Made by a program: the position numbers and the translations under genes. A stretch of DNA of 19,497 bases from Candidatus Heimdallarchaeota archaeon (GTDB taxonomy: Archaea; Asgardarchaeota; Heimdallarchaeia; JABLTI01): assembly GCA_019058275.1 (NCBI GenBank), contig JAHLVW010000109.1:1-19497 (forward strand). Direction: 5' to 3'. Below, piece by piece: positions 1-19,497 of this stretch (within the stretch, counting starts at the first letter, position 1; every line of letters begins with the position of its first letter). A model generated the notes under the pieces. The model ran no database searches. It saw nothing but the letters and a program-made list of their open reading frames with translations, and was not told where the DNA came from.

Positions 1-591
1 CAAAGGTTGATAGAACACAACCGAGTGAAAAGAAGGATGATCATTGGTTAGGAGTTTGCGAAGAAAGGAATTATACGTGCTAAGGATAATACGAGCATCG
101 CCAAAAAGCTCACAAGAAACCTCCTGAGCTAAACTACTAATAGTAGTTGCTACCCGGCAATGGGAATTGAAGTTTGTTTGTAGGAAATGGTTAACTTTTC
201 TCGCAAGAGAAGTATTTGGCACTACTAATACTGAAACTTTCCCAGAGTAGCGAGCCATGGATAGTGTTGCTGCTAGTGCAAGATCAAGGCTTGGAGAAAA
301 TTTCACAGGGAACAGTTTTTTGTATTCTTTTGAGTCGTCAATCGTAATGGCAAAAGATTCCTTTGATTTGAAAAAACACTTGAGGAGTTTAGATTGAATG
401 AAACCTCCTGCTAAAATCGGGAGATGATGGATTACATGCGACACTGTTCGAGGAAGGTGGGAACAAAAGCGATTAGGCATCGAAGATGAAAAGTCTTGTT
501 GCTTGTTGGTTTTTTCACTAACTGGTTCCTTAGTTACTTTTTCTGCTAATGTTGGTGCTTGCTCTCTTGAGTTATCTAAACCGTTATTCAT
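1..591 (-). CDS. 5' part (197 codons, runs off window) of a paralog of the giant Cas1-fusion protein
   Basis: Not in the ORF track. Manual translation from ATG 591 is open to base 1: MNNGLDN...HLPRTVSHVIHHLPI...PVKFSPSLDLALAATLSMARYSGKVSVLVVPNTSLARK...CRVATTISSLAQEVSCELFGDARIILST...PSFHSVVFYQPL. It aligns with 14953..15543 (PRTVSQIIYHFPI, FSPSLDLAL, CRVATTISSL, EVSCELFSDARII) and continues into the start of 11909..14974 (VFYHPL). Confidence 0.9.
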   Translation of the reverse strand, partial: MNNGLDNSREQAPTLAEKVTKEPVSEKTNKQQDFSSSMPNRFCSHLPRTVSHVIHHLPILAGGFIQSKLLKCFFKSKESFAITIDDSKEYKKLFPVKFSPSLDLALAATLSMARYSGKVSVLVVPNTSLARKVNHFLQTNFNSHCRVATTISSLAQEVSCELFGDARIILSTYNSFLRKLLTNDHPSFHSVVFYQPL

Positions 592-738
592 ACTAAAACC
601 ATCCTTGGCAAGGAATGTTTTTCATATCAGGTCAAATTAAATTCCTTTACAGCTAGCCTCTTGACAAAAATCGTTTAAAAAGAGCTAAATGATGCAAAAA
701 GGATTTTCAAGAGGAACAGGACTTGCTCTCTTGTCTAA

Positions 739-2421
739 ATGGTTGTATGTTTATTAGGGAAAAAAACAACTTTTTATTGTGAAAAAATGACTCCCCCACT
801 CAGCTGGAAAACAGATCCTCTGTTATTAGAAAGAAAGCAAGGATTGTCTTTGAATGATTTATTAGTGAATTTTGAAGATAGTGCTCGGAGAGAACAGTTA
901 GGAGAAAACCCTTTGAACAACTTTTATGGCTTTCTGATTAAAAGAGTGGATTTTATTCGGAAAGAAACTGCTCCAGCTGAAAAGAGAATAAGGATCCTCA
1001 CTCGAATGCCTTTCATACCATTAAATAATTATTCCTTTTTAAAACAATTATTAGAAGATAAAAGATGGCTTATAGCAGAGGCTTCTCGAGATTATTTCTA
1101 TCAATCAGCAATGAAGGATCATTCCATCAGAAACTGGAAGAATAGAATAGCGCGATATATAGAACGAGGAGCTATTCCCCTACCACTATTACGTGGAGAT
1201 GAAGAGCTCTGGCAACAATTCACACAGCAAGTCAAACAAGAACAGCAGATAACCATCCAATCAGCAAAAGGAGAACATTCAACGATCCCACTTATGCTAA
1301 CAGAGAAACTGGTTTATCTGTTGGGAGTCATTGATGGTGATGGCCACCTCTCCAAACACCAGGTGCACATAGTGGACTATTCTAAAAAGCACATCGAACA
1401 ACTACAACAGTTCATTCAAGAATTATTTAGAGTAACAGGAGCGATACGAGAGGGTAAGGAGGGGAACTATTACATTTTACTAGTGAATGGTAAATGGCTC
1501 GTTCGATTAATCAATTTCCTCACCGGACATCCCCTCGGGAGAAAGTATGCTGCTCTCAGGGAACCGCTTATCTTGCGAGAAAAACCTTTCCAGCATCTTC
1601 GGGGTGCTTACTGGCGAGGACTATTTGATGCGGATGCAAGCTATAAGCAAGGTGTAACATTTGTTACAACTGCTAAAACTTTAGCAGATGATTTATATAA
1701 TTATTTAGATTATAAAAAAATTAGCTATAGGACAAAGGAAAAGGATACCATTGGTAACCTATCATATGTTGTGTATATACCAACTGGATATCGAACTAAT
1801 TTATATTCACAGATAGGGAGCTGGCATCCTGAAAAAAACCAAGAATTTTTGAGCTTGTTGAAACGTAGAAGAATGGGAGAAAAAGAAGGATTTCAAGGGA
1901 TACCAAAACAAACACTTACCTCTGAAGGTTATTTCAATTTTTATCATCTTGATTCTTCAATTTTAGTAGTTAATGTTGGGTCTATATTGAACCAAATAAG
2001 AAAAAAAATGGTAATTTCTAGGAAGAAACTTGCTCAGGATTTATCCATTTCATATGAAACGATTACCGCTTATGAAAATGGAAGAGCTTTCCCACCTCTA
2101 AGAAATATTATCAAATTTGTAGAATTAACAAATCAAAAACTTATGCCTTTTCTCGAAGAAAATAGATTATTTTACTATAAAAGCCATTTAACTATACAAT
2201 TACCATTAAAACCAACTGCTTTTTTAAAGCAAGCGATGCAATACTTACACCCTCGTAATGGTTCTAATATTACCATTCTGACTAAAGATGAACATTTTTT
2301 TGAAGAGATGAAAAGCTATTTTTCTTTGCCCAGTTCATTAACTATTTCACAAAGACGTTTTTGTACTAGAGTATTACATAATTTCTTAATTACCTTTGGA
2401 AACTATCAAAACGTGAAATAA
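739..2421 (+). CDS. Free-standing double-motif LAGLIDADG endonuclease-like protein with C-terminal XRE-type HTH
   Basis: Motifs YLLGVIDGDGHL and YWRGLFDADAS. XRE-like segment LNQIRKKMVISRKKLAQDLSISYETITAYENGRAFP. No intein splice residues or host gene seen. The true start may be ATG 788. Confidence 0.85.
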   Translation: MVVCLLGKKTTFYCEKMTPPLSWKTDPLLLERKQGLSLNDLLVNFEDSARREQLGENPLNNFYGFLIKRVDFIRKETAPAEKRIRILTRMPFIPLNNYSFLKQLLEDKRWLIAEASRDYFYQSAMKDHSIRNWKNRIARYIERGAIPLPLLRGDEELWQQFTQQVKQEQQITIQSAKGEHSTIPLMLTEKLVYLLGVIDGDGHLSKHQVHIVDYSKKHIEQLQQFIQELFRVTGAIREGKEGNYYILLVNGKWLVRLINFLTGHPLGRKYAALREPLILREKPFQHLRGAYWRGLFDADASYKQGVTFVTTAKTLADDLYNYLDYKKISYRTKEKDTIGNLSYVVYIPTGYRTNLYSQIGSWHPEKNQEFLSLLKRRRMGEKEGFQGIPKQTLTSEGYFNFYHLDSSILVVNVGSILNQIRKKMVISRKKLAQDLSISYETITAYENGRAFPPLRNIIKFVELTNQKLMPFLEENRLFYYKSHLTIQLPLKPTAFLKQAMQYLHPRNGSNITILTKDEHFFEEMKSYFSLPSSLTISQRRFCTRVLHNFLITFGNYQNVK

Positions 2422-2444
2422 TTTAATACAAGCTTCAATGATCG

Positions 2445-2684
2445 TTATTCTTGTCTGGTATCTAGGAATAGAATTCTTGTTCGAGCTCCAAGTTTCTTAT
2501 CATTTAGTTTGGGTTGCTTTTGAATGAAGTGAATGATTTTTAAATATGAATCTAATTGTTCCCAGCTAAAACCTAATTTCGAATAAACCGCTTTCATAGA
2601 TTGAGGTCCTTTTTTCTCTATTAATTCAAAAATTTCTTGAATGCTCATTAAAGGAGTTCTTCTTTGTTGCAAGTATTCCACCAT
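2445..2684 (-). CDS. Small HTH/winged-helix-like DNA-binding protein (putative)
   Basis: 79-aa ORF filling the gap, with an HTH-like pattern IFELIEKKGPQSMKAVYSKLGFSWEQLDSYLKII. Divergent from the 825-aa gene. Confidence 0.6.
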   Translation of the reverse strand: MVEYLQQRRTPLMSIQEIFELIEKKGPQSMKAVYSKLGFSWEQLDSYLKIIHFIQKQPKLNDKKLGARTRILFLDTRQE

Positions 2685-2797
2685 GCCTACTTAATAATTT
2701 ATAAAACATTATATAAAATCATTGCAGTTTTTTTATAATCCTTACATAAAAGCAATTAATAAATCATTTAAAACACCCTAATAAATAATTGTAGGTA

Positions 2798-2805
2798 TTT
2801 ATATA
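2798..2805 (+). promoter_or_regulatory. Candidate archaeal TATA box
   Basis: TTTATATA about 20-27 nt upstream of ATG 2825, consistent with a leaderless transcript. The AT-rich background weakens this call. Confidence 0.3.
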
Positions 2806-2824
2806 TCCCCCCTATTACTATTTT

Positions 2825-18388: not shown

Positions 18389-18461
18389 GGAAGTAAAAGA
18401 ATTTCTAAATGATTTAGAAGAAGACGAGCTATTAGGTTATATTTACAATGCGTACCCTGAG

Positions 18462-18644
18462 ATGGCTGAAAATTCTGTTAAAAAAGACATCATCAATCAA
18501 AAACGAGTTGAAATAGCTGTTCAATTGTATCTGAAAAATAAGATTAGCTTGGGGAAAGCAGTAGAAATAGCAGGAATAAATCGCATTGATTTAATGAACC
18601 TAATAAGGGAAAGGGACCCTTCAGTTATTTTTTATACTTACTAA
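18462..18644 (+). CDS. UPF0175-like HTH domain, 3' part of the same gene
   Basis: AVQLYLKNKISLGKAVEIAGINRIDLMNLI. The frame is open upstream to ~18381 as FIEEVKEFLNDLEEDELLGYIYNAYPEM. Confidence 0.65.
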   Translation: MAENSVKKDIINQKRVEIAVQLYLKNKISLGKAVEIAGINRIDLMNLIRERDPSVIFYTY

Positions 18645-18752
18645 AGTATTATATTGATTTAAAGAGGTAATTTCACAATTGACTTCGAAAATCATGTCCC
18701 TATGCAGCTGATAATTGCCTGTGAAAAACTATTTTACATATTTTATGGTTTT

Positions 18753-18821
18753 TTGCGAAAAAATTGCAGAAACTTCCATTACAGTTGCAGAAAAATCCAT
18801 TTTTTTTACAGTTTAGTTGCA
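18753..18821. repeat. Short imperfect direct repeats (TTGCAGAAA..TCCATT..ACAG)
   Basis: TTGCAGAAACTTCCATTACAG (18764-18784) is followed by TTGCAGAAAAATCCATT(T)nACAG (18785-18811), with partial units at 18753 and 18817. Confidence 0.5.
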
Positions 18822-18841
18822 CCTTCTCGTCAATTAATTAA

Positions 18842-19495
18842 CTAATTATTGGTATTTGTAGAAACGATGTGGGATTTTTTCTCAAGAATAATTTGTAGAA
18901 TAGGTTCTAATTCTGGCACATTGAACAATCCAAATTGTAAGGATGGATCTAGTCTCAAAGCTTTTTCAAGGCAGGTAACTGCTTTAGAGACATGATTCAA
19001 TTTTGTGTAAGCGGAAGCAAGTTCAAGAAGAAGAATATCATCAGTAGGATTTTGTTTATGAGCTTTTTTCAACACTCCAACTGCTAACTCATATTCGCCC
19101 AAAATTCTGTGGGTTGCTGCTAAGCATCTACAAGCATTATATAATCCTGGATTTCCTTGTAAAGCTTTAGAAAGGTATTTCTTAGCTTCCTTATAATTCT
19201 TCACTTGCATATAGAGTGCTCCTAATTCAGCTAATAAACAAGGAGGTTCATCTATAAGCTCAAGTAATGATTTATAACTTTGAATTGCTTATTCATTTAA
19301 ACCAGCTTGTTTAAACAAGTAGATACTTCGGAATAATTCTTGTGTTTTAAAGGCCAGATCATCTTCAGAGTAAAGAGGTGCATCTAGCTCATCATCAAAA
19401 AAATACTCATCGTCGTCTTCATCCCCATCAAAAGGATATATTAATGATAAATCATTGATAATGGTTTTAAAATCAAGTTTTCGAGCAATTGTTAG
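18842..19495 (-). pseudogene. Second TPR gene (paralog of 15663..16658), 5' end off window, with in-frame TAA at 19289-19291
   Basis: Manual translation: LTIARKLDFKTII...QELFRSIYLFKQAGLNE*AIQSYKSLLELIDEPPCLLAELGALYMQVKNYKEAKK...GNPGLYNACRCLAATHRILGEYELAVGVLKKAH. Colinear with the first TPR protein on both sides of the stop. Confidence 0.8.
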
Positions 19496-19497
19496 TG

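Follow-up and report, generated by a model that had tools for sequence, protein, structure and literature searches.

Island arrays behind ppdK in a Heimdallarchaeia genus carry a giant fusion protein with a predicted Cas1 fold

Introduction

This study concerns a 19,497-nucleotide stretch of DNA from a Candidatus Heimdallarchaeota archaeon (the window). It is the entire contig C106 of a 4.1-Mb metagenome-assembled genome (MAG), the contigs of which carry C numbers here. Displaced 3' ends of ppdK divide the window into blocks, and two blocks carry a gene for a giant fusion protein with a diverged Cas1-like part (aCas1). The best explanation, in which we place middling confidence, is that islands lie in tandem behind ppdK in one genus of Heimdallarchaeia and that the window is the mid-part of such an array. 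These ppdK islands are real, well-delimited aCas1 elements with a testable target, and we infer their mechanism from the junctions that they leave.

Highly diverged, CRISPR-free Cas1 proteins were reportedly described in Asgard archaea by Makarova and colleagues in 2020. The aCas1 proteins and the loci that pair aCas1 with TnpB are published predictions (PMC10691335, Altae-Tran et al. 2023; PMC8730458). Like the ppdK islands, aCas1-TnpB loci contain a diverged, CRISPR-free Asgard aCas1, the predicted transposase of a distinct family of elements. Complete ppdK elements differ in having no TnpB-like open reading frame (ORF) or Pfam match. They also have an aCas1 of a distinct clade, a large protein termed p825, a fixed protein-coding target and replacement of the target's tail. 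No target site for aCas1 is described in the literature covered, outside which the 2020 report of Makarova lies, and no ppdK-targeting element was found in a search whose coverage excludes most subscription papers.

Casposons have PolB and terminal inverted repeats (TIRs) and leave their target unaltered (PMC4046053, Krupovic et al. 2014). They resemble ppdK islands in using a Cas1-fold enzyme as the sole integrase-like gene, in occupying the 3' region of a conserved gene and in forming tandem arrays (PMC4046053, PMC9939771). Cas1 is likewise the sole integrase-like gene in the complete elements of G010, L008 and L051. In contrast to casposons, ppdK islands have no PolB, no TIRs and no visible perfect target-site duplication (TSD) of 1-27 bp, although a short TSD could hide in the coding repeat. 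A foreign allele takes the place of the last 130-250 codons of the target, with loss of host codons.

Insertion of e14 or phage 21 replaces the 3' end of icd. The site of both at Escherichia coli icd is documented (PMC3530522). As with ppdK islands, insertion falls inside a central-metabolism gene, a replacement tail is supplied, a displaced tail lies downstream and the alleles are mosaic. The ppdK unit differs in that it has no tyrosine integrase, exchanges non-conservatively and has a variable breakpoint in the live gene. A single fixed crossover does not describe the ppdK data, with breakpoints at ~650-773 and tails from ~790, although later recombination could blur this comparison.

Free-standing homing endonucleases (T4 SegF and SegB; PMC13096335, PMC2993671) share with ppdK islands a stand-alone nuclease gene beside a conserved gene, a locally hypervariable patch and what may be variable co-conversion tracts. 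At ppdK, by contrast, an island of 13-17 kb is added, the old tail is kept, arrays are built and cleavage is putative.

Results

Displaced ppdK tails in the window

The source genome has one intact ppdK (C74, 900 amino acids, aa) and five orphan 3' ends (C106, C104, C110). The window tails were scored against the intact gene. The features concerned are as follows.

5354..5447, minus strand: ppdK tail C, codons ~870-900 plus stop, at the left end of element 2
5319..5339, minus strand: terminator-like hairpin 3' of tail C
8639..8759, minus strand: ppdK tail B, codons 861-900 plus stop
8602..8631, minus strand: terminator-like hairpin 3' of tail B, with a 13-bp stem
8821..8857, minus strand: decayed right junction of element 1, where the phosphoesterase stop meets a remnant of ppdK codons ~792-800

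Tail C matches PPDK residues 871-900 (5357-5446, minus strand; 90% identity, E=6e-10) and tail B matches residues 862-900 (8642-8758, minus strand; 77% identity, E=9e-14). Each has its own stop codon, followed by a terminator-like hairpin. This confirms the two same-strand orphan ppdK 3' ends proposed in an earlier, sequence-only reading of the window. Four hairpins were found within 5000-9000, compared with 1.0 +/- 1.0 in shuffled sequences. The 271 bp around tail C are 92% identical to the corresponding end of element 1 on C104, and the remnant at 8821-8857 matches the same junction in a relative, G010 (p=0.0005).

An assembly artefact, in which a chimeric MAG contig fuses paralogous loci, would fit the 6.8% contamination of the MAG and the apparent looping of contigs C104, C106 and C93. 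It was ruled out, with a probability close to nil, by the independent, contiguous assembly of a conspecific strain (GCA_019058195.1). There, a 2.26-Mb contig aligns with all 19,497 bases in one block at 99.82% identity, with the same neighbours. A single X3 contig also covers window positions 5342-19497, and at the left giant gene an X3 contig extends further into that gene. The C104-C106-C93 loop arose by mis-joining at a repeated segment of ~540 bp, made up of a CRISPR terminal repeat, trailer and tail. An excised 31-kb circle, suggested by the loop, was rejected, as the conspecific contig is linear. Close homologues are labelled Candidatus Heimdallarchaeota.

The giant aCas1 fusion protein

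The window holds two copies of the giant gene, one of them cut by the contig end.

1..591, minus strand: aCas1 fusion of element 2, 5' part (aa 1-197) of an intact 1212-aa gene, 99% to protein P0004
11909..15543, minus strand: aCas1 fusion of element 1, ~1215 aa, frameshifted near 15000-15010

As the sequence-only reading held, these are diverged copies in two blocks in the same orientation. They are same-strand paralogues with N-termini 48% identical, and the body of the right copy is 61% identical to P0004, the full left-type protein. Homologues measure 1212-1222 aa. The left gene runs onto contig C93, where its Cas1 domain, a helicase, a phosphoesterase and a further ppdK tail are found. 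It is full-length (1212 aa) and contiguous in the conspecific strain, so that the Cas1 domain once only supposed for this copy is present in an intact gene. The right copy is split into ORFs 14953-15543 and 11909-14974, and the independent assembly has the same 196+1021 split. Its layout comprises an N-terminal region with a weak DEAD-like match, CxxC motifs and a C-terminal Cas1 fold.

Pfam Cas1 models do not match the giant protein. Pfam, NCBIfam, PADLOC, PDB sequence search and ESM Atlas all fail to recognise it, and structure alone identified Cas1. An AlphaFold2 model of residues 560-1212 (mean pLDDT 57) has a confident helical domain and a low-confidence N-terminal beta domain. With this model, Foldseek returned the casposase 6opm as top match (E=7e-7), and 17/17 matches at E<=0.001 were Cas1-family structures. 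VIA Z was 14.6-16.5 for seven Cas1 chains and at most 7.0 for non-Cas1 rows. Residues E918, H1000, D1016 and D1019 are invariant and align with the CRISPR Cas1 proteins of the same genome. On this modelling, the giant protein is predicted to have a Cas1 fold with catalytic-type E/H/D residues.

Codon-position differences in the Cas1 domain (0.27/0.16/0.52) indicate purifying selection. The ppdK-linked Cas1 domains group together in a tree (support 91/96). A profile of this family has 15 matches in the source genome, many beside TnpB or tRNAs, and also matches TnpB-linked paralogues in that genome. Related aCas1 elements there adjoin tRNA-Pro, with 3' tails of ~22-34 bp.

Association of the islands with ppdK

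A complete unit is ~13-17 kb long. It consists of its own ppdK tail and terminator, p825, a small helix-turn-helix (HTH) protein, a LAGLIDADG-HTH nuclease, variable cargo, a TPR protein, the aCas1 fusion, a superfamily 2 (SF2) helicase and a phosphoesterase. All close aCas1-fusion homologues with informative flanks are tied to ppdK (L008, L013, L014, G010, G008 and G006), as had been anticipated for ppdK tails; this count leaves out two homologous loci that end too early to show linkage. In G010, a complete element of ~17 kb separates intact ppdK from a displaced tail. In four genomes (G004, G010, G006, L050), p825 and the LAGLIDADG gene lie directly behind intact ppdK, and in L013, L014 and G008 a ppdK tail lies 3' of the phosphoesterase. 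G007 has a near-empty ppdK site. JGI metagenome and viral contigs yielded no homologous loci with the patterns used.

No tyrosine or serine recombinase was found in any ppdK array examined, which removes the recombinase beside ppdK that could have accounted for the scars. The source genome has six tyrosine and two serine recombinases, all on other contigs.

Displaced ppdK tails also occur in a second Heimdallarchaeia family (L032 and L056 in G042; L029 in G040), with an empty site in G046 (L057).

Replacement of the ppdK tail

The live ppdK genes have a mosaic structure. Identity between G007 and G004 drops from 93% before codon 771 to 70% beyond it, and the source and sister-strain genes are 99.4% identical before codon ~710 and 82% after (sister strain, GCA_050009915.1). 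In G010, the live tail is foreign from codon ~650. The first displaced tail there is 92% identical to the tail of the nearest relative, P0062, and 67% to the live tail of G010. The polarity put forward earlier, in which the incoming element supplies a new tail and pushes the old host tail downstream, therefore holds in G010.

The displaced repeat is ~330 bp long and 66-92% identical to the live gene (66-69% nucleotide identity to the live tail in G010). Long displaced tails start at codons 787-794, and one at 799. They begin right after the phosphoesterase stop in G010 and in element 1 of the window, and the junction between this stop and codon 792 is common to elements ~60% apart. Breakpoints in live genes, all upstream of 773, lie at ~650, 640-672, ~710, 760-775 and 769-772. 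A breakpoint fixed at codon 771 was dropped, as further alleles gave values from ~650 to 773. Host codons upstream of ~790 are lost. All live genes tested contain codons 761-787, which every displaced tail lacks, and a model of codons 761-791 matches 8/8 live genes and 0 displaced tails. No significant remnant of codons 771-790 precedes the long tails (p>=0.1). Among ppdK alleles at least 92% identical over aa 1-640, identity in segment 772-800 falls to 55-86% in most pairs, and one close pair differs strongly in this patch alone.

TIRs were absent (end-versus-end tests of elements, p=0.15-0.52), as was PolB among the ORFs and Pfam matches of complete elements. With host codons lost and no fixed live-gene breakpoint, the casposon-like integration first proposed was not borne out.

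Live genes beside elements (G004, G010, G006) have unusual substitutions around the conserved FGTNDL motif in codons 772-800 (AGTNDL, VGSNDM). The displaced tail L008:3375-3694 joins codons 682-709 directly to 816-900, so for some displaced pieces the start lay far upstream and an internal deletion removed the target region.

Order of the arrays

In the conspecific strain, a CRISPR array is followed by tail A, element 1 (p827, HTH, LAGLIDADG, TPR and the right half of the window) and tail B. Cargo, tail C, element 2 (p825, HTH, LAGLIDADG, intact fusion, helicase and phosphoesterase), tail D and a toxin-antitoxin pair come next. In the sister strain, 56.5 kb of stitched sequence leads from intact ppdK, past a type I CRISPR-Cas locus and six displaced ppdK tails, into core genes. 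Source contigs C74, C65, C76, C104, C106, C93 and C110 map onto it in that order. Both flanks foretold from the window were found. The intact ppdK to its right follows from contig order and from the conspecific and sister strains, not from one source-genome contig, and Cas1, helicase, phosphoesterase and a further ppdK tail are present left of base 1 in the conspecific 2.26-Mb contig.

The blocks had also been thought to stack in chronological order, each with one Cas1 element. Neither idea fits the arrays. Frameshifted element 1, with its decayed tail, is closer to live ppdK than intact element 2 with its long tail, and the block nearest live ppdK is CRISPR-Cas. Strains reshuffle modules between repeats: the sister strain holds a chimera of the left half of element 1 and the right half of element 2. 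Most blocks are cargo only. The window itself has no PolB, Cas2, CRISPR array or recombinase, in line with the sequence-only reading. The ppdK array to which it belongs, however, has as its first block the type I CRISPR-Cas locus, which includes a CRISPR array. That block is probably a non-autonomous derivative, because it retains a ~100 bp remnant of the p825 3' end.

Sister-strain CRISPR spacers did not match the ppdK arrays. The conspecific CRISPR array (L049:13075-15542) has a duplicated run of six spacers. At C104:220-280, and also in L008 and L051, a degenerate terminal CRISPR repeat shares its first base with the phosphoesterase stop codon of element 2; the trailer of the array comes next, and then tail D. 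Such an overlap is either a Cas1-type joint at the repeat border or a CRISPR block deleted down to its last repeat.

Discussion

Insertion at ppdK would be asymmetric and non-conservative. We consider it an even call that an enzyme of the element, probably aCas1, makes one sharp joint while homologous exchange makes the other. The right end of the element (phosphoesterase stop) would be joined sharply to ppdK codon ~790, most likely by the aCas1 domain, through a half-site-type strand transfer aided by the helicase. On the left, an element-borne ppdK segment would exchange with the live gene by homology, at codon ~650 to 773, and this exchange would delete the recognition region from the displaced copy. 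Cargo-only blocks, the whole CRISPR-Cas locus included, may be non-autonomous derivatives or deletion remnants. Since one junction is sharp, the other is variable and the DNA between is lost, the event could be half-site strand transfer with homologous resolution or break-induced homing. The half-site model is preferred on three grounds: conservation of the Cas1 active site, the position of the module right at the sharp junction and the short tRNA tails next to related elements.

Several points weigh against this model. Two other intact-looking nucleases (LAGLIDADG and p825) are in the unit, both conserved and equally well placed to act, and we only infer aCas1 to be the integrase of ppdK islands. 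The aCas1 profile found no match in G040 and G042, the genomes (88-89% complete) of the other family with displaced ppdK tails. In the ppdK arrays, aCas1 is present in only 1/6 blocks of the sister strain and 2/5 of the conspecific strain. The sample consists of related genomes with non-independent tails (A and D have a trailer and stop codon in common), and the variable live-gene breakpoints could stem from later homologous transfer rather than the insertion step.

Intronless homing with built-in arms is possible, if unlikely. Here, the LAGLIDADG protein or p825 would cut a sensitive ppdK allele at codons ~772-790. Repair would use the donor ppdK as left arm and the downstream tail (792-900) as right arm, copying a recoded, resistant tail together with the island, and aCas1, helicase and phosphoesterase would be accessory or a relic of the founding insertion. 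Homing stays close behind the half-site model because the LAGLIDADG gene and p825 both look intact: both catalytic-position aspartates are kept, with two motifs intact, in all LAGLIDADG copies, and domain 1 of p825 keeps E364, D379 and E396. The fall in identity in segment 772-800 suits it, as do the position of all left breakpoints upstream of 773, the lack of 761-787 in all displaced tails and the long co-conversion tracts of free-standing homing endonucleases (PMC13096335), although the pattern in ppdK has other explanations too. Homing leaves unexplained the invariant Cas1 active site and the purifying selection on this domain, and as homology arms the tRNA tails of ~33 bp found next to related elements would be short. 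The cutting of ppdK is putative, and the LAGLIDADG family of ppdK islands is also present in TnpB-linked elements. The ppdK-linked LAGLIDADG copies form one clade.

Rather improbable is a host hotspot, at which the tails are reassorted either through homologous recombination of the host or by a recombinase from another locus, with the aCas1 module as cargo (for example, in defence) or as one historic insertion spread by lateral exchange. The tails in the family where aCas1 was not found keep this explanation alive, and the dominance of cargo-only blocks, the swapping of modules between strains and the eight recombinases on other contigs agree with it. None of these recombinases lies in an array, however. 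The left and right ends of the unit are conserved across genomes, and in four it sits directly behind the live gene. The p825 remnant in the CRISPR-Cas block and the related aCas1 modules at other repeat-bounded sites also speak against a hotspot. Strict casposase action, with conservative Cas1 integration of each element into the live gene and blocks ordered by age, is very improbable. A casposase is the top structural match, the displacement polarity in G010 fits, tandem casposons at one site are known (PMC9939771) and a short duplication at the conserved GTND codons could hide inside the coding repeat. Against this, PolB and TIRs are missing, host codons from the breakpoint to ~790 are gone and the age order is contradicted by the position of broken element 1, the CRISPR-Cas block and the sister chimera. 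Casposons, moreover, leave aEF-2 and tRNA sequences unaltered (PMC4046053). The sequence-only interpretation thus stands in its ppdK linkage, flanks and tail displacement, and falls in block order, casposon-like integration and one Cas1 per block.

Tentatively, and with the chances tilted against it, the islands may represent a new PolB-less, TIR-less element class. A Cas1-fold enzyme and helicase would join one end only to a fixed protein-coding site, and nucleases and homologous exchange would swap the tail. This would build integron-like arrays, with a whole CRISPR-Cas locus in trans and with p825 and TnpB as interchangeable target selectors.

Asgard aCas1 has been a proposed mobiliser of unknown elements, for which the ppdK locus gives a complete element and a sharp right junction. 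It also gives a mapped target (codons ~770-795), donor and recipient alleles and near-empty sites, which makes the integrase and homing readings both directly testable. If Cas1 does make the joint, this would be a third use of Cas1 besides CRISPR adaptation and casposons, placing 13-17 kb at one site with the gene unbroken. The ppdK array is also one of the main routes by which defence and surface genes enter these archaea.

Other genes and related elements

The remaining features of the window are nucleases, partners of the aCas1 fusion and cargo.

739..2421, plus strand: LAGLIDADG-XRE-HTH nuclease of element 2 (PF14528, E=2e-11, plus HTH)
2445..2684, minus strand: 79-aa putative winged-HTH protein between the LAGLIDADG gene and p825 (weak HTH_45 match)
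2825..5302, plus strand: p825, 825 aa, with two predicted PD-(D/E)XK nuclease folds (aa ~335-476 and ~643-780)
5870..6472, plus strand: cargo, 200-aa protein with an N-terminal signal-like hydrophobic stretch, no family match
6567..8588, plus strand: cargo, 673-aa LVIVD-repeat protein with a C-terminal hydrophobic anchor-like stretch (PF08309, E=1e-16)
8857..9477, minus strand: calcineurin-like phosphoesterase, last gene of element 1 (PF00149/PF12850)
9474..11973, minus strand: SF2 helicase (MrfA/YprA-like, Zn-binding), 814 aa when intact, frameshift near 11569
15663..16658, minus strand: TPR protein, the usual upstream partner of the aCas1 fusion
16869..18008, minus strand: 379-aa cargo protein, no family match
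18056..18644, plus strand: 110-aa and 60-aa (UPF0175) gene pieces
18842..19497, minus strand: second TPR gene, 3' part, continuing on C104 towards LAGLIDADG, p827 and tail A

Lesions in the element 1 helicase differ by strain. The conspecific copy lacks that near 11569 and is broken near 9906. The second TPR gene has an internal stop at 19289-19291, absent from the conspecific strain. The gene at 18056..18644 is one 197-aa ORF in G004, followed by a DUF3368-like gene. The 379-aa cargo protein is 98% identical in G004, with fragments in L010 and L014, and the 79-aa HTH protein is 61-63% to copies in C104, L008 and G004.

Stacked 22-34-bp tRNA-Pro 3' tails divide cargo blocks at C33:92773-108147, C108:1876-5594 and C52:64246-65741. 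These stacks are a tRNA analogue of the ppdK array, beside an oppositely oriented aCas1 element. With about 20 LAGLIDADG-HTH paralogues and 15 matches to aCas1, the source genome contains a family of related elements that is unusually large.

The AlphaFold2 model of p825 has a mean pLDDT of 78, with VIA Z of 10-12 to AF1548, Can2, XisH and NucS; Foldseek with whole p825 was uninformative. Remote homologues of 585-1045 aa (E 1e-8 to 1e-13) occur on C48, C29, C84, C33, C87 and C73. Several lie in TnpB-less aCas1 elements, facing a LAGLIDADG gene where others have TnpB, and these homologues and TnpB are possibly alternative target selectors. The p825 gene is at the ppdK-proximal end in every context seen. 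The DNA for its conserved C-terminus (window 5280-5302) is shared with the ppdK terminator region of the other strand and is 92% identical between copies whose proteins are 34% identical.

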